Shown piece by piece: positions 23,577 to 59,341 of a stretch of 64,000 nucleotides of DNA (position 1 is the stretch's first letter; the number at the start of each line of letters is the position of its first letter). Where the stretch lies: the NCBI GenBank assembly GCA_035546615.1, contig DASZWM010000002.1, forward strand, positions 15,460-79,459, in the 5' to 3' direction. Below the pieces are notes generated by a model. The model was given only the letters and a program-made list of their open reading frames with translations. It ran no database searches and was not told where the DNA came from. The position numbers were made by a program, and so were the translations under genes. The DNA comes from Minisyncoccota bacterium (GTDB lineage Bacteria; Patescibacteriota; Minisyncoccia; Phycocordibacterales; SBAW01).

Positions 23577-23651
23577 CTAGGTTACTCCTATTGAATTTTC
23601 AAGCATCTATTGCGAATAGCAGCCCAAAGGCAGCTACACGCTTCACCTACT

Positions 23652-23681
23652 ATTATATCATACTTAGTACCACTTTGTCAA
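23652..23681 (-). promoter_or_regulatory. near-consensus sigma70 promoter for the SPFH operon
   Basis: On the minus strand, TTGACA-N18-TATAAT. AGGAG RBS lies 8 nt before the ATG at 23576. Confidence 0.5.
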
Positions 23682-23736
23682 GCTACAAAAGCCTTGGAAT
23701 ATAAGGCCAAATCGAACGTTTTCCTACTGCTTTTTG

Positions 23737-23820
23737 TGCCGGGGGTGGGAATCGAACCCACACGAACTCGCGTTCTCAGGATTTTAAGTCCTGTATGTCT
23801 ACCAATTCCATCACCCCGGC
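23737..23820 (-). tRNA. tRNA-Leu (anticodon TAA)
   Basis: Hand-folded cloverleaf: acceptor GCCGGGG/CCCCGGC, anticodon loop CTTAAAA, long variable arm, T arm GTGGG TTCGATT CCCAC. Confidence 0.9.
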
Positions 23821-23873
23821 GTTTCATATTTTTACCACGAATTTATGCTCTGTATATGATACAGTGTCAGCAC

Positions 23874-23955
23874 GCTGGGGTGGCGGAATTGGTATACGCA
23901 CCTGCCTTAGGAGCAGACGGGGTAACCCATGGAGGTTCAAGTCCTCTCCCCAGCA
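23874..23955 (+). tRNA. tRNA-Leu (anticodon TAG)
   Basis: Acceptor GCTGGGG/CCCCAGC, anticodon loop CTTAGGA, long variable arm, T arm GGAGG TTCAAGT CCTCT. Confidence 0.88.
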
Positions 23956-24075
23956 CATTGTAAGAGATAAGTTTTTGTTGTATTTTGATTCATACGCGCC
24001 TATATCTTCCCCAGGTCGATATAGCCGTTCGTTCGGGGCGAATGCAAAACAGGATTTTGCGCTCTTCCTCACTTC

Positions 24076-24148
24076 GCGCCTATAGCTCAGCTGGTAGAGC
24101 TGCTCCCTCTTAAGGAGAAGGTCCCAGGTTCGAATCCTGGTGGGCGCA
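24076..24148 (+). tRNA. tRNA-Lys (anticodon CTT)
   Basis: GCGCCTA TAGCTCAGCTGGTAGAGC, anticodon loop CTCTTAA, T arm CCCAG GTTCGAAT CCTGG. Confidence 0.92.
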
Positions 24149-24159
24149 CAGACGACAGT

Positions 24160-24184
24160 AAAATCCCGCTTGAGCGGGATTTTC
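24160..24184 (+). terminator. rho-independent terminator after tRNA-Lys
   Basis: AAAATCCCGC ttga GCGGGATTTT. Confidence 0.7.
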
Positions 24185-24278
24185 TGCGCTGTGCGGGGCG
24201 CAGCCATGTCCCGCACTGGCGGGACGGCGAGCCGGGGTCGCGAAACTATTTCGCGACGGCGAAATAGTATTTGTGACC
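24184..24278 (+). repeat. tRNA-linked structured element, copy D (short form, 3' of tRNA-Lys)
   Basis: CTGCGC tgtgcggg GCGCAG; CCCGC actg GCGGG; ACGGCGAGCCGGGGTCGCG; ACTATTTCGC gacg GCGAAATAGT; ATTTGTGACC. Shares the core, GACG-loop hairpin and tail with copy E. Confidence 0.55.
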
Positions 24279-24301
24279 ACAAAGTGCGAGACGCTTTTTT
24301 G

Positions 24302-24447
24302 AGGCCAGGAGAAATCGATCAGGCGTTCAAAAATTGTCGTCACAATTTTTGCCGCACGACCCTGCCTCGCTCCCAAGTCTGCTGACTTGGGGCCCGCTCC
24401 GGCTTGCGATTCCCGACGAGAAGCACCCCGTGCTTCTCTCCATGGCC
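24302..24447 (-). repeat. tRNA-linked structured element, copy A (long form, 3' of tRNA-Cys)
   Basis: Three perfect hairpins plus the conserved core GCCGGAGCGGG..GGGAGCGAGGCAGGGTCGTG shared with copies B and C. The arms derive from the tRNA-Cys 3' end. Confidence 0.8.
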
Positions 24448-24469
24448 GCTTGCGTCGAAGACTCCTTAG

Positions 24470-24541
24470 AGGCCACGGCGGGAATCGCACCCGCGTATAA
24501 AGGATTTGCAGTCCCTTGCCTTACTACTTGGCTACGTGGCC
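24470..24541 (-). tRNA. tRNA-Cys (anticodon GCA)
   Basis: GGCCACG/CGTGGCC acceptor, anticodon loop CTGCAAA, T arm GCGGG TGCGATT CCCGC, discriminator U. Confidence 0.9.
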
Positions 24542-24593
24542 ATTGCCTAGCGGCAGGCACGTGCCCGCACGCGTAGGTGTAATTACAATACCG

Positions 24594-24911
24594 TTACTGC
24601 GAGAGTTCGTCGAGGCGCTGCCGGTTCTTTTCGCCCATATCTATTTCGAATACGATGTCCGGCGGAAGCGCACCCTTGATGCGCGTCTTGAAGAAATCCT
24701 TCATCTCGGTGCGATTGCGATTGGCGAATGACAACGCGTTCTCCTCCGCAGTCTCAGGCAGTACGGTCATATAAATAGTCGCGTGCTTGTTGTCTTCGGT
24801 TAACATGGCGCGGGTAATGGTGATGAGCGAGCCGCGGCCCGCTTCGCGCACCATGAATTCCGCCGCGACATCGCGCAGTCCTGCCTCAAGCCGTTCGTGT
24901 CGGTTGTCCAT
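24594..24911 (-). CDS. rbfA: ribosome-binding factor A
   Basis: 105 aa. LITITRAMLTEDNKHATIYMTVL..., downstream of infB as in most bacteria. Confidence 0.8.
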   Translation of the reverse strand: MDNRHERLEAGLRDVAAEFMVREAGRGSLITITRAMLTEDNKHATIYMTVLPETAEENALSFANRNRTEMKDFFKTRIKGALPPDIVFEIDMGEKNRQRLDELSQ

Positions 24912-31954: not shown

Positions 31955-32107
31955 GTGCGCCGGGGAGGAATCGGTCAGGAATAAAGTGTTCGCCGTCGCG
32001 AATACTTTTTCACGACCCTGCCTCGCTCCCGCATCTGGTGATGCGGGGCCCGCTCCGGCTTGCGAATCCTCACGCAAGGTATCCCATACCTTGCTCCCGC
32101 GCAGCAC
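31955..32107 (-). repeat. tRNA-linked structured element, copy B (long form, 3' of tRNA-Tyr)
   Basis: Same three-hairpin architecture and core as copies A and C. It ends with a 15-nt exact copy of the tRNA-Tyr 3' end (31955-31969 = 32152-32166). Confidence 0.8.
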
Positions 32108-32313: not shown

Positions 32314-33414
32314 ATGCGCAATAGGGGTGCCGTACTCATATTTGCGGGAGGGCTGCTCTTTACCCTCTTGCCGTTTATCGCCTCGGCCGCCGGGATTGTT
32401 CCATGTGGCGATACCACGGGCCTTGCGCCAGGTACTCCTCAGTATTACGCGGCCGCAACAAGTTGTCAGGCATGCAGCGTAATTCAACTGATTCAGACCC
32501 TTATTAACTTCATGATAGGACTCTCCATTCCTATCGCGATGGCGCTCTTCGCCTGGGCCGGCGTCCTGTATTTTACAGCCGCTACCAAGGAGGAGAATAT
32601 ATCAAAGGCAAAGAGCATTTTCCGCAGCGTATTTGTCGGATTCATCATAGTTCTCGGCGCATACCTTATGGTAGAGACGCTCCTGCACGCCATTCTTAAT
32701 CAGGATTACTTTACCGGCTGGAACAAGATCGAATGCGTTGATAATACCAAGCGCCCAACCCAGGGCACGCTCGGTCAACTGATAAATGAAGTAATAGGCC
32801 ATCCGGAAGATTCTTTAGTTGTTGGGAAGGCTCCTGTCGCGGTAAGCGATCCGTCTACATGTACCGGCAAACTGAGCTACGACAGCTCTATCAATCAGTA
32901 TTACTGCTTGAATACAGTCAGCGGCATGGTCAGTCAAACAGGCTCTGGACAGTGTGCGCCCGGCAGCATACAAGCTGCTGCTGCGGCGGGAGGATATCCC
33001 ATTACACCAGCACAAGCTCAGACCTTTTCCTGCCTTGCGGCTCCGGAAAGCGGTTGCCAAGGGAATCCTGGCCAAGCCAGGACGCCGACCGGCGACCCGA
33101 CAAGCGCTTCCGGCCATTTTCAGATCGTCCTTGGCCTCAATGATCAGTGTCATAATCTGAATATTCCTGCATGCACCCAGGCTGCGCAAGCAGCCGGCTA
33201 TTCGGTAAGCGGGAATCTCAATTGCTCCAGCCACTTCAGGGGAGGCGTTCCTATAGACGCAGTAGGACAGGCATGCAAGGCGGCGGCAAGCAACTTTACC
33301 TGCAATGCTTCGGCTGCGGCTTGTCTGGTAACGCAGAATCCAAGCTTTAGCGACTGGACGGCGGACCCTCGCAGCAGTTCACAGAAATCATGCGTCAATA
33401 CGTATAATCATTAG
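32314..33414 (+). CDS. pilin-like N-terminal module fused to a Cys-rich extracellular domain (possible lytic transglycosylase-like)
   Basis: N-terminus has IVPCG...SCQACSVIQLIQTLINFMIGLSIPIAMALFAWAGVLYF...KAKSIF..., the pilin layout of 19846-21419. The C-terminal ~240 aa carry many Cys residues and APESGC...SASGHFQI, which resembles the SLT E-S ... G-x-x-Q motif. Confidence 0.6.
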   Translation: MRNRGAVLIFAGGLLFTLLPFIASAAGIVPCGDTTGLAPGTPQYYAAATSCQACSVIQLIQTLINFMIGLSIPIAMALFAWAGVLYFTAATKEENISKAKSIFRSVFVGFIIVLGAYLMVETLLHAILNQDYFTGWNKIECVDNTKRPTQGTLGQLINEVIGHPEDSLVVGKAPVAVSDPSTCTGKLSYDSSINQYYCLNTVSGMVSQTGSGQCAPGSIQAAAAAGGYPITPAQAQTFSCLAAPESGCQGNPGQARTPTGDPTSASGHFQIVLGLNDQCHNLNIPACTQAAQAAGYSVSGNLNCSSHFRGGVPIDAVGQACKAAASNFTCNASAAACLVTQNPSFSDWTADPRSSSQKSCVNTYNH

Positions 33415-34330: not shown

Positions 34331-34371
34331 CAAAAGACGCAAAATGCAACCTTCGTTGCTTTTTGTGCGTT

Positions 34372-34459
34372 GCGGGAGACGGAGCGATGCCGCGCAATGG
34401 CGCGGCCGCGAGTCGGGGTCGCGAAAATTTTTTGCGACGGCAAAAAGTTATTTGTGACC
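34372..34459 (+). repeat. tRNA-linked structured element, copy E (divergent short form, 3' of tRNA-Trp)
   Basis: GGAGCGATGCC; GCCGCGC aatg GCGCGGC; CGCGAGTCGGGGTCGCG; AAAATTTTTTGC gacg GCAAAAAGTT; ATTTGTGACC. Confidence 0.5.
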
Positions 34460-36897: not shown

Positions 36898-36938
36898 GGG
36901 TGTACGCGAATTGTCTCGCGCACACCCTTTTGCTTTTT
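36898..36938 (+). terminator. rho-independent terminator after the PRTase gene
   Basis: GGGTGTACGCGA attgtc TCGCGCACACCC followed by TTTTGCTTTTT. Confidence 0.7.
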
Positions 36939-36939
36939 A

Positions 36940-37053
36940 TGGCGGGGGGAATCGGCTACCACGTAGCCAGGTACTTTTCGATCTCGATGACTCGATAACG
37001 AAAAGTCTTTCGATTCTCCCATGGAAGCAAATCAATTTGCTTCCTCCCCGGAC
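36940..37053 (-). repeat. tRNA-linked structured element, copy F (variant core, 3' of tRNA-Leu-CAA)
   Basis: hp1 is GGAAGCAAA ttga TTTGCTTCC. GGGAGAATCGAA is the exact reverse complement of the tRNA T arm. The distal CCGATTCCCCCCGCCA is a decayed copy of the tRNA 3' end. Confidence 0.55.
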
Positions 37054-37060
37054 TCCAGAC

Positions 37061-37088
37061 AGAAAAAGAGCCGGGCGGTAAGCCTGGC
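37061..37088 (-). terminator. terminator after tRNA-Leu(CAA)
   Basis: On the minus strand, GCCAGGC ttacc GCCCGGC followed by TCTTTTTCT. Confidence 0.6.
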
Positions 37089-55523: not shown

Positions 55524-55664
55524 TGCGCCCGAAGGAAGCAATGGGATTGCTTCCGGCAGGGATTCGAAAGCCGGAGCGGGACCCGCATCAGCAGATGCGG
55601 GAGCGAGGCAGGGTCGTGCGGCTAAAGTTGCGACGGCAACTTTAGAACGCCTGACCGAATCCCT
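55524..55664 (+). repeat. tRNA-linked structured element, copy C (long form, 3' of tRNA-Gln)
   Basis: hp1 is GGAAGCAAT ggg ATTGCTTCC, hp2 is CCCGCATC agca GATGCGGG, hp3 is CTAAAGTTGC gacg GCAACTTTAG. The core is near-identical to copies A and B. CAGGGATTCGAA is the exact reverse complement of the tRNA-Gln T arm. Confidence 0.8.
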
Positions 55665-55726: not shown

Positions 55727-57400
55727 ATGCCGTATTCGACTGATATGTCAGTGTATTTAGATTTGGGCGGCGCTTTAGCTGCTTTTGGCCTTTTATTTAC
55801 TGTTTACCAACTTCGGCGACCAAGGTGGGAGGTAATTTTGCGAATTAGAAATAATTGGCAAAGTGATATTTTCTGGATATTAGGTTTTATAGGTTTGTTT
55901 TATGCCCTAGTTGGCGTGCTTGTATCTGAACTCCCAATTAATTCTTTCAACTTTCCGTTTAATACCCCATTACTTTACGAGGTGGCAGCGTACCTATCGT
56001 TTGTAGCTTCACCTCTGTCATTAATATATTTTGCGACCAATGACAAAAAGTTATTTAACGCAAAAACTGCAGAAACTTTCTACGAAGTAATCTTGCAAGA
56101 AATTTCTAAATCTAGTGATGTAAACCTAGATGCGGCATTGGAAATAGTCTTGAGAAACTTTAATGAAATTTGTGATGCAACTCTTCAAAATACAGATAAA
56201 GATTTGCGCTCATACGCAAGGTCAATTTTAGACGTTGTACTAAGTGACGAGTCTGTAGTAAAAGTGCTCACTACCAAGAGGCTTGATGCTTTGCAATATA
56301 TCTTTTATTTAATAAAGGAAAAGAATATCACTCGTGCTCATTCGGGGATAGGTATACCGAGAATTGTAAATAATCTTTTCTTTGACGAAAATTCCTTCCT
56401 CTATAAACAACTCGATAGAAAAGGGTTGGCACTTTCATCAAATATATACACGAGCATTTTTGAATCTCCAGTTATACTCACCAACTTTGATCTGTTTGGG
56501 TACCCGACTATCGGTTATGGAATGAGTAGAGATACTGGCAATGCTGGTATAAGAGTATTTATCAAAGCCTTATCTCTAAGCATTGAAACTTACTTTAAAA
56601 CAGGGAGCGTGCCTCCGAGGCACATTAATAATGGGTTGTCTTACTTAAGCAATATATTTGGAGGGTTGTGTGCAAAAATTGCCATCAAAGAAAATAAAGG
56701 TGTTGATACTAAATCTAGTTTAGAAGATGAGTGGTGGGGCTTACATCAAATAGCCTCCTTTTTAGGACATGATTATATTTTTCTTGCCTATGAAGAAAAA
56801 CTAAATCAGCAAGTTCTGGAAAACGAAAAAACTGCCCATGAGGCTCGATTTGGCTCAAATGCAACTATAAATGAGGGTATTGCAGCTGTTATCTATAAAG
56901 CTTTTGAGCAGCTTTCACAAATTAAAAAAACCACAGACATATATCATACAGTTCTGGAGCTCTTGCATGGAATGATGAATGAGCCTACCTACAAGGAAGG
57001 TTATAGACCGCCTTTTGAAAAGAGACTCTGGCAACAAATCGGTGCAAATGTTGCTAAACGTTATTATCCTGCCGTCGTTAGAACGTATTTAACCTTTGTT
57101 GGGTTCTGTCTTGGCGCAGATGCAAACCAACGACAAGGTTGGATTGGCGAACAAGCGGAACGTATGAGACGACTTTTGTATATTGACCTTAAGCCTTTAT
57201 TTGATAAGAATGAAAAAATGATAAATAAGGAATTTATGAAAGACGTTTTGCTCCCAGATTCCATGTCCTATAAAGATGGTAAATTTACTTATACCTCTGG
57301 ATTCGGAGAAGGTACAACCACTGAAGTAGCACCACCCCCTGAGGGTGCGACATCAGGTTTGGAAGGAATAGATTTAGAGAGTATGCCTCACTTCGTCTAG
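55727..57400 (+). CDS. ORFan membrane protein (3 N-terminal TM helices plus a ~450-aa helical domain)
   Basis: 557-aa ORF in the AT-rich island. No motif recognised. Confidence 0.65.
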   Translation: MPYSTDMSVYLDLGGALAAFGLLFTVYQLRRPRWEVILRIRNNWQSDIFWILGFIGLFYALVGVLVSELPINSFNFPFNTPLLYEVAAYLSFVASPLSLIYFATNDKKLFNAKTAETFYEVILQEISKSSDVNLDAALEIVLRNFNEICDATLQNTDKDLRSYARSILDVVLSDESVVKVLTTKRLDALQYIFYLIKEKNITRAHSGIGIPRIVNNLFFDENSFLYKQLDRKGLALSSNIYTSIFESPVILTNFDLFGYPTIGYGMSRDTGNAGIRVFIKALSLSIETYFKTGSVPPRHINNGLSYLSNIFGGLCAKIAIKENKGVDTKSSLEDEWWGLHQIASFLGHDYIFLAYEEKLNQQVLENEKTAHEARFGSNATINEGIAAVIYKAFEQLSQIKKTTDIYHTVLELLHGMMNEPTYKEGYRPPFEKRLWQQIGANVAKRYYPAVVRTYLTFVGFCLGADANQRQGWIGEQAERMRRLLYIDLKPLFDKNEKMINKEFMKDVLLPDSMSYKDGKFTYTSGFGEGTTTEVAPPPEGATSGLEGIDLESMPHFV

Positions 57401-57402
57401 AT

Positions 57403-57960
57403 ATGAATCCAAACATTTGGTTTTACACTTTTAGTACAGCAGCCCAAGTAATGGCGGCTTTGGCCGGTTTATTTGCAGTATTTGTTGTATATAAGATTCA
57501 AGATTTTAGTCAGCTTATAAAAGACGCCCGCTCTAGTCTGTCCCGGTTGATTCCATACAATTCAGCGAATACGGGCGGAGATACAATCTCTAAGCAGGAA
57601 GTATTAGATATGACTGATAGAGAATTGGTTACTACGCTTGCCGAGTTGTTAGTACTTGAGACATCTCAGAATGGAGCGTTCTTTAGCGGACATTCAGAAA
57701 CTATAGATGGCACAACGATAGCTGTAAACTCGAATACCTACGACTATTTCGCAGCCCTTGTTGATAAAAAGGAAAGAATACTAAAACGTCTGATTTTTGT
57801 CTTGGGTTTAAGTTTAGGAACTATTTGTGTTTGTCTAGTATCATTGGTGCTAATTGACGTGTTATCAAAGTTTGAGTGGTTTATTTGGATGTGTTTGGCT
57901 TTATTTATATACACCCTTTGGACAATCGGAATGGATATTTACAAGATAACCCTAGAGTAA
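57403..57960 (+). CDS. ORFan membrane protein (1 N-terminal and 2 C-terminal TM helices)
   Basis: 185 aa, starting 3 nt after the previous stop. The N-terminal helix MAALAGLFAVFVVYKI resembles that of the 557-aa protein (LAAFGLLFTVYQL). Confidence 0.6.
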   Translation: MNPNIWFYTFSTAAQVMAALAGLFAVFVVYKIQDFSQLIKDARSSLSRLIPYNSANTGGDTISKQEVLDMTDRELVTTLAELLVLETSQNGAFFSGHSETIDGTTIAVNSNTYDYFAALVDKKERILKRLIFVLGLSLGTICVCLVSLVLIDVLSKFEWFIWMCLALFIYTLWTIGMDIYKITLE

Positions 57961-57969
57961 TCTTTCTCT

Positions 57970-58293
57970 ATGAAAGGAATAATTATCGAAAATAGTCTCA
58001 AAGACAAAAGTATTATCACCGAAGCTGAAATTATTCGAACTTGGGAAGATGGAAGTTGGAAGTTGCGGGAGGTAAAAGTTTCAACAGAATGGGCTGAAAA
58101 ATTTGGAGGATACTTAAATGATGGACCCTGGTATGTTCACTTTTGGGAATCCGACAGCGACGATGTACTAGTAGTATTTAAAGACAAAAGCTTCTGGATC
58201 AAACATTCGGACAAGAATACTTGGCAAGATGCTATTGCTCATGGAAAGTCGTTACATATACCCGTGGAGCAATTAGACTTTCCTATTGATTGA
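57970..58293 (+). CDS. small soluble ORFan protein
   Basis: 107 aa, Trp/Asp-rich, same operon-like spacing. Confidence 0.5.
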   Translation: MKGIIIENSLKDKSIITEAEIIRTWEDGSWKLREVKVSTEWAEKFGGYLNDGPWYVHFWESDSDDVLVVFKDKSFWIKHSDKNTWQDAIAHGKSLHIPVEQLDFPID

Positions 58294-58331
58294 GATTTCG
58301 ATTTCTCCCTTTTATATTATATAATCAAGAT

Positions 58332-58715
58332 ATGAAGTATTTGCTAATCACGGCTTTATTTTTGGTTGTCTTTGTGTTTGCTACTCCAGCAAAGGCCGCA
58401 CCATTAACCCAATCCCAAGTAAATGCAATAATTACTATTATGCAGTCTTTCGGTGTAGATAGTGCTACGATTTTAAATATCAAAACAACACTCTCTAATT
58501 CGACTTCCGCTAAGGTAGAATCCGTCGTCAAAACTACTTTTAAAGGAGTTCCTACCTACGCACAAGTGAAAAGAGAGTTAGCAAAATCACGCAATAAGGA
58601 GGTGACTTATATGGAGAATGGATGTGTATACTCAATAAACCATTTAGTGAGTGAACATATTTTCAAAACACGCGATATGAGTATTCGCGATCTTGCATCT
58701 GGAGCAAGTTGTTAG
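58332..58715 (+). CDS. secreted ORFan protein
   Basis: Signal peptide MKYLLITALFLVVFVFATPAKA/AP. Start is the internal ATG of ORF 58290..58715. Confidence 0.5.
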   Translation: MKYLLITALFLVVFVFATPAKAAPLTQSQVNAIITIMQSFGVDSATILNIKTTLSNSTSAKVESVVKTTFKGVPTYAQVKRELAKSRNKEVTYMENGCVYSINHLVSEHIFKTRDMSIRDLASGASC

Positions 58716-58758
58716 TGCTCCTTGGTGTATAAAGTTTAAAAATATAGTTAATCTTCTC

Positions 58759-59241
58759 TTACCCCCGTCGCGCCGCATCAATAGCGGCAACGTCGAGCTT
58801 TTTCATCGTCATCATCGCGTCAAACGCGCGTTTTGCCTCATCGCCGCCCTTGGCAAGTGCTTCGGTCAGCGTGCGCGGCGTTATTTGCCACGATACTCCC
58901 CAGCGGTCCTTGCACCAGCCGCACTCGCTCTCCTGGCCGCCGTTTCCGACGATGGCATTCCAGTAGCGGTCCGTCTCTTCCTGATCGTCCGTCGCTATCT
59001 GGAAGGAAAACGCCTCGCTTTGCTTGAAATACGAGCCGCCGTTAATGCCCATGCAAGGAATCCCGCAGACCGTGAACTCTACCGAGAGCACGTCGCCTTT
59101 CTTGCCCGACGGGAAATCGGCAGGCGCATGGAAGACGCCCGTTACCTTGCTGTCGGGGAACGTAGCGGCATAGAAATTCGCCGCCCCTTCCGCATCCTTA
59201 TCAAACCAGAGGCAAATAGTGTTTTTTGGTATCATATACAT
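58759..59241 (-). CDS. VOC/glyoxalase-fold protein (PhnB / 3-demethylubiquinone methyltransferase-like domain)
   Basis: ICLWFDKDAEGAANFYAATFPDS..., FSFQIATDDQEETDRYWNAI, CGWCKDRWGVSWQI. Confidence 0.75.
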   Translation of the reverse strand: MYMIPKNTICLWFDKDAEGAANFYAATFPDSKVTGVFHAPADFPSGKKGDVLSVEFTVCGIPCMGINGGSYFKQSEAFSFQIATDDQEETDRYWNAIVGNGGQESECGWCKDRWGVSWQITPRTLTEALAKGGDEAKRAFDAMMTMKKLDVAAIDAARRG

Positions 59242-59341
59242 ATATTTTATAGCACCTCAGGATAATCTACAAAATAAGCGGAGGCTCCGGAAAAGGCCCG
59301 ACATCGTCCCAGAGGATCCATCCTTTGCTATACTGGCCACT

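Follow-up and report, generated by a model that had tools for sequence, protein, structure and literature searches.

Structured repeats with target-matched arms behind tRNA genes in Patescibacteria, most likely insertion cassettes that home to gene 3' ends

In the 64,000-nucleotide stretch of DNA analysed here (the window), two structured elements face each other between the genes for tRNA-Lys and tRNA-Cys, and the question is what such elements are and how they came to lie behind these genes. They had been described in an initial annotation as two copies, A and D, of a tRNA-linked element at positions 24184-24447. The sequence is as described there, and a covariance model of the conserved core, designated R1, matches both copies with scores far beyond chance (A, 74.4 bits, E 3.6e-14; D, 80.0 bits, E 2.3e-15). 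Exactly five matches to this model were found in the 64 kb, scoring 74-82 bits, with the next best at 12, and core patterns sought elsewhere in the window were absent outside the copies.

Copy A follows its target gene tRNA-Cys(GCA) (24469..24541, minus strand; ARAGORN and Rfam) on the same strand. Its left arm (24405..24447, minus strand) is composed of LA1 GGCCATGGAG (24447..24438), a hairpin hp1 with the strands GAGAAGCAC/GTGCTTCTC (24438..24418), and LA2 CGGGAATCGCA (24415..24405), which is an exact 11-nt reverse complement of the T-loop/T-stem of tRNA-Cys. This agrees with the initial annotation, in which the left arm was seen as the reverse complement of the tRNA-Cys 3' end, with an exact run of 11 nt and with hp1 near the acceptor/T-stem junction. 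The arm is followed by a long-form (class I) R1 core (24317..24404, minus strand), which contains hp2 and a hairpin hp3 with a GACG loop (24404..24317), and by the right arm CGATTTCTCCTGGCCTC (24301..24317, minus strand), correctly recognised as repeating the tRNA-Cys 3' end in direct orientation and decayed form (CGATTTCTCCTGGCCT, 24317..24301). This right arm begins at position C56 of the T-loop, and a perfect 19/19 copy is present in the equivalent place in the closest relative, locus L119. The hp2 stem of copy A differs from that of copies B and C at three of eight base pairs, all of them compensated as reported (CCCAAGTC/GACTTGGG versus CCCGCATC/GATGCGGG).

Copy D, 3' of its target gene tRNA-Lys(CTT) (24076..24149, plus strand; ARAGORN; Rfam tRNA 67.4 bits), is a genuine short form (class II) with its core at 24196..24278 on the plus strand. 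Gene and core are separated by a GC hairpin with A/U flanks, read from the sequence as AAAATCCCGC ttga GCGGGATTTT (24160..24183, plus strand), and by a left arm CTGCGCTGTGCG (24184..24195, plus strand) that is antisense to the tRNA-Lys end plus trailer (CGCACAGaCGaCAG). The hairpin is the centre of a longer one, whose outer part is formed by the tRNA-Lys 3' end and the left arm. Two details of the earlier description had to be revised. The supposed acceptor-like mini-hairpin CTGCGC..GCGCAG was a misreading, as GCGCAG lies in the conserved 5' strand of the core (G-GGC-GCAGC) and CTGCGCTGTGCG is instead the left arm that extends the terminator-like hairpin at 24160-24183. The GCTTTTTTGAGG tract on which both elements were said to converge is not a functional shared element. 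AGGCC.. is the end of the right arm of A, and ACAAAGTGCGAGACG (24279..24293, plus strand) contains the P1 3' strand (CACAA) and, by comparison with the tandem linkers GTGACC-ACAAAGTGGAAG-ACGGAGCG in L004 and other loci, appears to be a further D-type copy in tandem of which only the start is left; two tandem copies are present at the site of copy D in L119.

Three further R1 copies are found in the window. Copy B (31955..32107, minus strand, 78.9 bits), 3' of tRNA-Tyr, consists of LA1 (32107..32094), hp1 (32093..32075), LA2 (32070..32061), the core (32060..31973) and a right arm (31973..31955) with a 15-nt exact copy of the tRNA end. Copy C (55524..55664, plus strand, 79.7 bits), 3' of tRNA-Gln and homologous to the tRNA-Gln element of L242, contains hp1 (55534-55554), LA2 (55557-55568), the core (55569-55656) and a right arm CCGAATCCCT that is cut short at 55664. 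A low-GC block of unknown ORFs is located 3' of copy C. Copy E (34365..34459, plus strand, 82.3 bits) is a short form 3' of tRNA-Trp, with a left arm followed by the core (34377-34459). In addition, element F (36930..37065, minus strand), 3' of tRNA-Leu(CAA), has LA1, hp1, LA2, AAAG and a right arm placed around a different core ending in ACCTGGCTACGTGGTAGCC; it was not matched by the R1 model in the search of the window, and a homologue follows tRNA-Phe in L030. A second core family thus uses the frame of the R1 elements.

The R1 core is a conserved 87-nt unit of two hairpins, which together with P1 form a three-way junction. In an alignment of 93 copies (A2), 91.4% of the cells are paired, compared to 31-41% with slid partners; double-change cells number 728 against 197 in shuffles, and the covariation score is 0.575 versus 0.17. 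Compensated stem changes are therefore well above controls, as the initial annotation had anticipated, and the same fold was recovered independently by RNAalifold. On the tRNA strand there are 180 G.U wobble pairs against 16 A.C, and one G.U pair is invariant in 93/93 copies. In an otherwise invariant helix, the pair U50-A91 is replaced by C-G in two copies of L119. Across the phylum, 22 positions of the core are invariant. The compensatory changes and the strand-specific wobbles show that the tRNA-sense strand is selected to fold.

The R1 core could be identified in more than 200 public contigs, almost all from Patescibacteria (CPR bacteria). All five matches in the window lie directly 3' of a tRNA gene and on its strand, and among 137 R1 matches in 100 related loci, 77 lie behind a tRNA, 14 behind another copy and at least four behind a tmRNA. 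Seen from the side of the genes, 78 of the 156 tRNAs in the 100 loci, of all amino-acid types, are trailed by a copy, and the same pattern of placement was observed in 120 metagenome contigs. The preference for tRNA 3' flanks is thus strong, neither of the two outcomes named as refuting in the initial annotation was obtained, and the description as a repeated, structured and tRNA-linked element stands, but not its specificity for tRNA genes: other targets are tmRNA, the stop codon of rpsI and the 3' part of topA. The arms are matched to those sequences too, which means that they are not intrinsically tRNA-like but correspond to whichever gene lies upstream. ORFs upstream of the non-tRNA copies are ordinary genes, e.g. 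topA and rpsI. A 'protein C-terminus' target upstream of L001, L035, L050 and L080 was considered and rejected; this stretch is conserved at the nucleotide level and was re-read as a fossil, apparently a tRNA-Asp-like 3' end carried along with the cassette. The window cores at different tRNAs are closer to each other than to cores at the same tRNA in other genomes.

The left arm is antisense to the last 8-20 nt of the upstream gene and the right arm repeats these nucleotides, so that the two arms are reverse complements of each other and their sequences differ from target to target. The duplication measures about 8-15 nt in class II, 19-22 nt in class I and about 80 nt at topA. Across genomes, class I elements are found at Ser, Tyr, Asp, Pro, Cys and Gln tRNAs and class II elements at Lys-CTT and Ala tRNAs; in the short form, the arm finds its partner in the trailer and the final few nucleotides of the tRNA, and not in an acceptor mimic. 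The left arm additionally covers tRNA positions 54-55, which are absent from the right arm. This was read by hand in informative cases with a non-UU T-loop (copy A, L082, L098, L113, L089), because most T-loops have UU and the junction reads AAAG, which makes an automatic test uninformative. Moreover, the left arm often matches the living tRNA better than it matches its own decayed right arm (copy A, L025, and L030 with 12/12 and 11/11 matches to the tRNA).

Several observations bear on the origin of these units, a matter of insertion events that the initial annotation had not considered. First, about 17 copies have a right arm that is near-perfect over 17-23 nt, and progressive decay is seen in others, many right arms being truncated (copy C, L030). 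Secondly, at topA the native 3' end is displaced to beyond the element and retains its stop codon and terminator there, and in L077 the element is flanked on both sides by the final 11 nt of rpsI. Thirdly, in L121-L123 the genes of the orthologous tRNA-Cys/Leu/Lys cluster stand close together without any element, whereas the cluster is occupied in the window and in L119, where the flank beyond the right arm resembles the flank at the empty L121 site. Two different cores lie in tandem in L085, with right arms that are identical to each other (20/20) and differ from the tRNA at two positions. Finally, 1-1.5 kb of genes are present between tRNA and element in three cargo loci (L080, L147 and L242), where a perfect 19-22-nt repeat of the tRNA end is found 1.2-1.55 kb downstream, directly after the R1 core. 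Most units are 130-200 nt long and have no ORF. Copies have therefore been gained or lost between related genomes, their arms are target-matched, they stack in tandem, and a copy can close a cargo of 1-1.5 kb. The empty orthologous sites, the duplicated target ends before the native flank, the tandem copies and the cargo point to insertion events, and because the 3' segment of the target is duplicated, the gene stays intact.

Known families offer no match. At the gathering threshold, Rfam 15 identifies only the 8 tRNAs in the window, and with E up to 10 no match falls on the elements in the window at 23600-24700 or in L025:7600-7900. No recombinase, transposase or reverse transcriptase was detected among 26 ORFs scanned against Pfam (20 from the window, 6 from L080), and no gene for an RNA-guided recombinase or nuclease among the ORFs scanned near copies. 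A GIY-YIG protein is present in L080, but as a linked enzyme it was rejected, being found at only 4 loci and in inconsistent positions. Hammerhead, HDV-like and kink-turn readings of the junctions were rejected by eye, as cleavage-site nucleotides are not conserved, the GAAA and CUGA-like strings are either paired or part of the T-loop complement, and a 3-nt bulge is missing from the GA/GA internal loop. A diversity-generating retroelement (VR/TR) was dismissed since the two topA 3' copies differ in ways that are not specific to adenines, and a phage origin since none of 2.9 million viral contigs searched matches R1. Neither an excised or circular form nor polymorphism within a species was seen. 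Full-text literature searches returned no description of the family, and PMC5737381 contains no such motif; the R1 family is apparently undescribed.

The reading towards which we lean, with somewhat more confidence than doubt, is that A and D are small non-autonomous insertion cassettes, with the folded single strand and the target-matched arms as integration module. The family most likely homes to gene 3' ends in Patescibacteria, mostly of tRNA, also of tmRNA and occasionally of protein genes. In the direction of the target gene, a unit would comprise the intact gene end (X2'), a short A/U-flanked hairpin, a left arm antisense to X2, the 87-nt core R1, a right arm that is the second direct copy of X2, and the native downstream flank. 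We propose that the fold and the arm duplex act in cis as the integration module and that the site is chosen by complementarity of the arms to conserved target sequence, class I probably recognising the T-loop UUCGAWUCC and class II CACAA(A) at the tRNA end. Target choice by base-pairing would explain both the matched arms and off-target sites of similar sequence, such as the topA site CACAAAAAC, which resembles the tRNA-end site CACAAAAG. The chemistry would be carried out by a putative enzyme acting in trans, and the active form may be RNA (a read-through transcript, guide or ribozyme) or folded single-stranded DNA. As a side effect for the host, hairpin and U-rich left arm might supply a terminator-like structure directly after the tRNA. 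A simple cut-and-paste unit cannot explain arms for a new tRNA, as the left arm is interleaved with hp1 and the core; the correlation of element class with tRNA identity fits long residence at a site. Further points stand against the cassettes: the 22 invariant positions are unusual for a purely selfish repeat, the topA duplication of about 80 nt contrasts with a 10-nt arm, and the scanned ORFs and viral contigs gave neither an enzyme nor a match.

A more far-reaching form of this proposal, which we consider rather doubtful, holds that R1 is the scaffold of a naturally programmable insertion. Through its arms, the folded single strand (RNA or ssDNA) would pair with both strands of a gene 3' end, a putative trans-acting enzyme or the fold itself would perform the insertion, and the target would be duplicated so that the gene survives, with the arms re-templated from the new target.

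The strongest rival is still an unlikely one, if less so than programmable insertion: R1 could be a host-functional RNA, produced by read-through from the tRNA promoter, with a left arm that pairs with the tRNA 3' end or trailer and a core that recruits a protein. Such an RNA could act in termination or quality control, guide the modification of the T-loop or acceptor region, or take part in 3'-end processing, for which the long hairpin might be cut by an RNase III-type enzyme; the right arm would mimic the tRNA end or compete with it within the same molecule. The sense-strand fold with its invariant G.U pair and 22 invariant positions agrees with this, as does the presence of a copy at about half of the tRNAs in positive genomes. 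In 35 short-form copies, which share the same hairpin layout, the core lies at a constant 46-51 nt from the tRNA end, and a promoter-like site between tRNA and core was looked for in the window and not found. Compensatory differences between the window and L119 in the hairpin 3' of tRNA-Lys are likewise favourable, as is the correlation of element class with tRNA identity. A function involving the tRNA itself would also fit a left arm that covers 54-55 and, next to a decayed right arm, still tracks the living tRNA (copy A; L030). On the other hand, related genomes manage without the element at the same tRNAs, and the core is also found behind rpsI and topA, where its arms match coding sequence. 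Displaced gene ends, graded arm decay, tandems and cargo would be unexpected for a processing signal. Read-through also has to contend with a terminator-like hairpin between tRNA and core in many copies; A- and U-rich sequence flanks the hairpins before the short-form cores, and a simple consensus terminator scan called none at 23650-24650.

Elements that integrate into tRNA genes are classically marked by direct repeats of the tRNA 3' end with their start in the T-loop, and the copies might accordingly be scars or att sites of integrase-driven islands or prophages, with the repeats as attL/attR and R1 merely att-proximal. The three loci with 1.2-1.55 kb of accessory genes between repeats, the use of tmRNA as a target and the low-GC block after copy C would be in line with such an origin; the second tRNA-Gln repeat that would bound an island beyond copy C was sought and not found. 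We nevertheless regard it as improbable, as most units measure only 130-200 nt and lack an ORF, the cargo of L080, L147 and L242 contains no integrase, and the viral contig collection has no match. An att flank would not give helix covariation with strand-specific wobbles, an integrase att site needs no inverted target copy, and dozens of different targets are used per genome. Least probable are tRNA pseudogenes or tRNA-like RNAs whose acceptor/T-arm mimics are processed, CCA-tailed or charged: long-form arms do recreate both the acceptor stem and the T stem of their cognate tRNA, with hp1 emerging where the D and anticodon arms would be, but the left arm is a true reverse complement including the T-loop and not a copy of the tRNA 5' half, short and protein-gene forms have no acceptor-like helix, right arms are often truncated, and no tRNA or tRNA-like Rfam match was obtained on the elements with E up to 10.

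Genomes of Patescibacteria are tiny and thought to be poor in mobile DNA. R1 would add to them a major repeat or RNA class, which here takes up as many as half of the tRNA loci, and its covariance model allows the annotation of stretches that so far go unlabelled 3' of tRNA and tmRNA genes and of some protein genes. Should target choice indeed depend on pairing of the arms, this would be a natural gene-sparing programmable insertion of clear interest for engineering. If R1 is a host RNA instead, it points to a new step in the handling of tRNA 3' ends; an encoded CCA is mostly absent in the organisms that carry R1.

Among known systems, tRNA-linked small RNAs (dicistronic tRNA-snoRNA; 3'ETS sRNAs) also lie directly 3' of a tRNA on the same strand and share with R1 a probable co-transcription, but they have no copy or anti-copy of the tRNA end and show neither target duplication nor insertion polymorphism. 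REP/BIME sequences and MITEs are similarly short, ORF-less, multicopy, strongly structured, sometimes tandem, and located 3' intergenically between gene end and terminator. The constant terminal inverted repeats of MITEs, related to those of a parent IS, and their fixed-length target-site duplication are absent here, as the terminal repeats of R1 are copied from each target; its insertion position is precise to the gene end and its three-way junction is conserved across the phylum. Group I introns occur in the anticodon loops of tRNAs in Patescibacteria (PMC13011429). By covering tRNA positions 54-55 as well as 56 onward, the R1 left arm bridges the junction as an intron guide does when it pairs with the 5' and 3' exons. 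It is not a group I intron, however: the tRNA is uninterrupted, R1 lies at the T-loop/3' end instead of the anticodon loop, an 87-nt core cannot hold the P3-P9 catalytic core, and no intron family of Rfam matches.

Islands and prophages in tRNA and tmRNA genes share with R1 the targets (T-loop to 3' end, tmRNA), a duplicated 3' segment that keeps the gene intact, and the decay of the displaced copy. Direct repeats of the tRNA end are thus common to both, but R1 units are not of kilobase size and lack an integrase and phage or plasmid genes; they carry an inverted target copy and a covarying fold, can occupy nearly every tRNA type in a genome, and are absent from viral contigs. The architecture of integron cassettes, with a core site, cassette, inverse core site, single-strand-folding region and core site, resembles R1 in layout (an architectural match only). 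In both systems one strand is selected to fold, cassettes are empty or contain co-oriented promoterless ORFs, and arrays form at one anchor site (for R1 in L080, L109 and the tandem copies). The R1 'core site', however, is formed by the last 8-22 nt of the upstream gene and not by a fixed GTTRRRY with its RYYYAAC counterpart, and its three-way junction is strongly conserved in sequence, whereas attC conserves shape and not sequence; no IntI or attI was seen for R1 among the ORFs scanned, and the hosts are Patescibacteria.

The homing crRNA of type V-K CRISPR-associated transposons targets tRNA genes. In these transposons, in IS110/IS1111 bridge RNAs and in TnpB/IscB guides, a structured scaffold adjoins about 20 nt that are identical or complementary to the target, as in R1, and the element comes to lie beside an intact tRNA gene; the likeness seen here is one of sequence layout. 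R1 differs from them in that its target is duplicated, its guide-like segment is paired with its own complement, its scaffold is unrelated to the described families, and no recombinase or nuclease gene is linked to it among the ORFs scanned. Programmable insertion by R1 would thus be base-pairing-guided and gene-sparing, and distinct from integrons, bridge-RNA recombinases and CRISPR-associated transposons.

Between tRNA-Lys (24076–24149, plus strand) and tRNA-Cys (24469–24541, minus strand), two of the eight tRNA genes in the window, the initial annotation had recognized two converging repeats, and both are borne out by the sequence. Copy A, read with tRNA-Cys, consists in order of a first left-arm segment LA1 (GGCCATGGAG), a hairpin of 9 bp (hp1), a second left-arm segment LA2 (CGGGAATCGCA), a conserved core and a right arm. 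LA2 is the exact reverse complement, over 11 nt, of the tRNA-Cys T-loop and T-stem, and the right arm directly repeats, in decayed form, the final 18–19 nt of this tRNA. Copy D, behind tRNA-Lys, shares the core of copy A; ahead of this core stand a GC hairpin with A/U flanks and a left arm of 12 nt that is antisense to the tRNA-Lys end and trailer. The earlier description needed two local corrections; its interpretation holds in outline and was too narrow in scope. Behind tRNA-Tyr, tRNA-Gln and tRNA-Trp lie copies B, C and E, respectively; A, B and C represent a long form (class I), and D and E a short form (class II). An element F behind tRNA-Leu-CAA has the same frame with a different core. 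Most tRNA genes in the window do not encode CCA (e.g. 24149–24152, 32152, 24469), and in many only CA or C comes next. Genes with a T4SS-pilin-like domain (PF18895) are found near tRNA clusters, both in the window (32314–33411) and in the flanks of the related loci L121–L123.

The 87-nt two-hairpin core, designated R1, is a conserved fold. A covariance model of R1, run on the window with filters off, recovers exactly the five copies at 74–82 bits, and everything else scores at most 12 bits. Folding of all copies lies far below that of shuffled controls, and in copies D, E, A and C the tRNA strand is clearly more stable than the opposite strand. An alignment of 93 core sequences (A2) has the consensus A-GNC-GGAGC-GAUG-(hp2)-C-GCGAG-N'C-N-GGGUCG-(long stem with tandem G.A, loop GACG)-UGACC. 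For the structure that we specified, 91.4% of cells in A2 are paired, versus 31–41% when partners are slid by 1–3 columns; double-sided changes occupy 728 cells versus 197 in shuffles, and the covariation score is 0.575 versus 0.17. The N/N' pair alone occurs as GC (38 sequences), CG (34) and AU (16). RNAalifold, unguided, returns the same structure, with compensatory change in 21 of 31 predicted pairs. In two copies of L119, the closest relative of the window (RbfA 84% identical), the elsewhere invariant GGUCG/UGACC helix has become GGCCG/UGGCC, a compensated change. Since one G.U pair is invariant in 93/93 sequences and wobbles total 180 G.U versus 16 A.C, the selected fold is that of the strand sense to the upstream gene.

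A degenerate pattern derived from the five window cores, scanned against public contigs, matches at least 118 genome contigs and at least 120 metagenome contigs. The matches listed are nearly all from Patescibacteria (Paceibacterota, Nomura-, Kaiser-, Adler-, Zambryski-, Yonath- and Vogelbacteria), and also include MAGs labelled Saccharibacteria. About 15 matches in actinobacterial ORFs are chance matches. A few high-scoring copies (L073, L075, L053) come from contigs assigned to Elusimicrobia or Bdellovibrionales bins, reflecting either a wider distribution or mis-binned Patescibacteria contigs. Placement is strongly patterned: of 137 copies found by the R1 model in 100 fetched loci, 77 lie at most 200 nt 3' of a same-strand tRNA, 14 behind another copy, at least 4 behind tmRNA (Rfam-confirmed in L014 and L060), 17 at a locus edge and 25 elsewhere, the last group including the topA and rpsI copies described below. 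Half of the tRNAs in these loci (78/156) have a copy behind them, with every amino-acid type represented, and the metagenome set has the same placement pattern. In three genomes, a conserved promoter-like stretch (GAAAAAAGTTCGCGCAAAG.GTATAAT) lies directly upstream of an R1 copy with no tRNA in front (L004:1–310; L067:150–430; L078:5740–5950, minus strand).

The arms are matched to the upstream gene. A helix, P1, always closes the core. Its 3' strand, the right arm, directly repeats a segment (X2) from the 3' end of that gene, and its 5' strand, the left arm, is the complement of X2. In class I, X2 spans 19–22 nt, beginning at C56 of the T-loop and ending 0–2 nt past the discriminator; about 17 copies have a near-perfect right arm, and in the others it shows progressive decay. 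The left arm is either simple, comprising the T-loop/T-stem complement alone (GGAAUCGAA), or bipartite (LA1-hp1-LA2), with hp1, bordered by conserved GAG...CGU, at the acceptor/T-stem boundary. In long class I forms a terminator-like hairpin has its stem prolonged by LA1 into the acceptor 3' strand; in L030 the result, built from tRNA end, terminator and LA1, is a perfect hairpin of 29 bp. Judged from the informative non-UU cases (window copy A, L082, L098, L113, L089), tRNA positions 54–55 are covered by the left arm and absent from the right arm. In class II the core starts a nearly constant 46–51 nt behind the tRNA, and the spacer is a single long hairpin around a GC stem, commonly with a C-CUGC-G or C-CUUC-G loop, in which the last 3–6 tRNA nucleotides and an A-rich arm pair with a U-rich arm and the left arm. 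The pairing partner of class II arms is exactly the C72-A73-C-A stretch at tRNA ends.

Some insertion signatures are seen where the target is a protein-coding gene. R1 follows topA in five loci, with arms matched to the topA coding sequence, and lies within or after the last zinc-ribbon (L037:6500–6900; L025, L059, L099, L101). Downstream, about 80 nt of displaced original 3' end can still be recognized, reaching its own stop codon and terminator; it decays by frameshifts, and the functional copy is upstream. The topA sites, (G)CAC(C)AAAAAC, are similar to CACAAAAG, the site at tRNA ends in class II. In one locus (L077, 4590–4950) R1 follows the rpsI stop codon with arms matched to the rpsI coding sequence; 11 nt are duplicated, stop codon included, and the native terminator lies beyond the right arm. 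More generally, the native flank of the upstream gene is found downstream of the right arm.

Copies are gained or lost between relatives of the window, which itself comes from a Paceibacterota MAG. L119 carries a short, degenerate copy with a perfect right arm (19/19) behind tRNA-Cys and two tandem copies behind tRNA-Lys, and in three more distant relatives (RbfA 75% identical) the four tRNAs stand 21–46 nt apart and are element-free. The L119 flank beyond the right arm resembles that behind tRNA-Cys at the empty site of L121. L085 has a tandem of two clearly different cores whose right arms agree fully with one another (20/20) and depart from the tRNA at two positions; duplication was therefore templated on the target copy then present. 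Window cores at different tRNAs have common subtype features (GCGGGCC...GGGAGCGAGGCAGGG) that are lacking at the same tRNAs in other genomes, which argues for intragenomic spread or homogenisation. At the 5' end of tRNA-Lys, the window (23996–24075) and L119 (3858–3910, minus strand) have a 42–78-nt insertion relative to L121 and L123. It is flanked by duplicated GCGCCTATA (23996–24004, 24076–24084) and holds TATAGCCG (24020–24027), the complement of this repeat, a mirror-image 'copy plus anti-copy' arrangement.

Some elements carry cargo. In L080 (1–3820), L147 (8948–10300) and L242 (92–1590), a perfect tRNA-end repeat of 19–22 nt lies 1.2–1.55 kb downstream, directly behind an R1 core, and between tRNA and core are co-oriented accessory genes (a GIY-YIG nuclease, TauE, an NYN-domain protein, a hydrolase-like ORF and unknowns). 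An older, decayed tRNA-end copy is located just ahead of the element's hairpin. L080 and L109 (2030–2850) resemble short arrays of cassettes. In four different genomes the conserved fossil GTTCTAACATCNTCCACNAGNCCGCGC stands ahead of the tRNA-Asp-linked copies. Directly behind copy C, whose right arm ends abruptly after 9 nt, lie five ORFs without Pfam match (55727–59262; GC 37–48% versus a window average of about 58%). This block may be an island inserted into that right arm; a search for a second tRNA-Gln repeat found none. The frame is also used by a second core family, the F-type, behind tRNA-Leu-CAA in the window (36930–37065, minus strand) and behind tRNA-Phe in L030 (4415–4570, plus strand): LA1, hp1 with a CUGC loop, LA2, AAAG and right arm surround a core unrelated to R1, with terminal sequence ACCTGGCTACGTGGTAGCC.

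We propose, with moderate confidence, that R1 elements are small non-autonomous insertion cassettes with fold and arms as integration module. The conserved single-strand fold and P1 duplex, as RNA or ssDNA, would act in cis, and arm complementarity to a conserved target (T-loop UUCGAWUCC in class I, CACAA at the tRNA end in class II) would select the site. Insertion duplicates the target's terminal segment and thereby spares the gene, and the hairpin and U-rich arm would provide a new terminator-like end. The chemistry would be performed in trans by an enzyme encoded elsewhere. The sequences themselves show the fold and its strand, its placement, arms matched to the target, target duplication, gain and loss among relatives, tandem copies and forms with cargo; site selection through pairing, action in trans and the RNA or ssDNA nature of the active form are inferred. 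A gene-sparing insertion system programmed by base pairing, as a reading of the whole, we regard as rather unlikely.

The following observations all fit a host role tied to the tRNA transcript. No mobility enzyme is present among 26 ORFs scanned, linkage to GIY-YIG is not consistent, and a search of 2.9 million viral contigs gave no R1 matches. Core conservation spans the phylum, tRNA-to-core spacing is constant, the left arm often fits the living tRNA more closely than the decayed right arm does, and class tracks tRNA identity across genomes (class I: Ser 7/7, Tyr 4/4, Asp 4/4; class II: Lys-CTT 5/5). Moreover, conserved parts alternate with those of the left arm, and a simple transposable unit therefore cannot bring correct arms to a new tRNA. 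Candidate routes for arm writing are guide-defined staggered nicks, copy-back synthesis, template-switch correction of a quasi-palindrome against the neighbouring tRNA end, and RNA-level capture of the target's 3' end. The host-function and insertion-cassette readings can both hold, since features of both kinds would be expected in a domesticated insertion element.

Rfam 15 contains no match to the element, even at E up to 10, and literature searches yielded no description. R1 departs from group I introns, MITEs/REPs and tRNA-linked snoRNAs in a defining feature of each. Guide-RNA elements (IS110 bridge RNA, TnpB/IscB RNAs, the tRNA-homing crRNA of type V-K CASTs) likewise place a scaffold beside a target-matched segment, but no partner gene was found for R1 among the ORFs scanned, and to our knowledge their targets are not duplicated. 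Islands integrating into tRNA genes share target and gene-sparing duplication, but differ in size, inverted copy, covarying fold and the integrase that R1 is missing. In architecture, R1 comes closest to the integron cassette with attC, through the succession of core site, cassette, inverse core, folded region and core site and through the arrays; in R1, however, core sites are target-specific, the folded region is conserved in sequence, and no IntI was seen among the ORFs scanned. As each analogue differs in key features, we file the element under no known family: R1 is a large, uncatalogued family with an anatomy unmatched among described systems.
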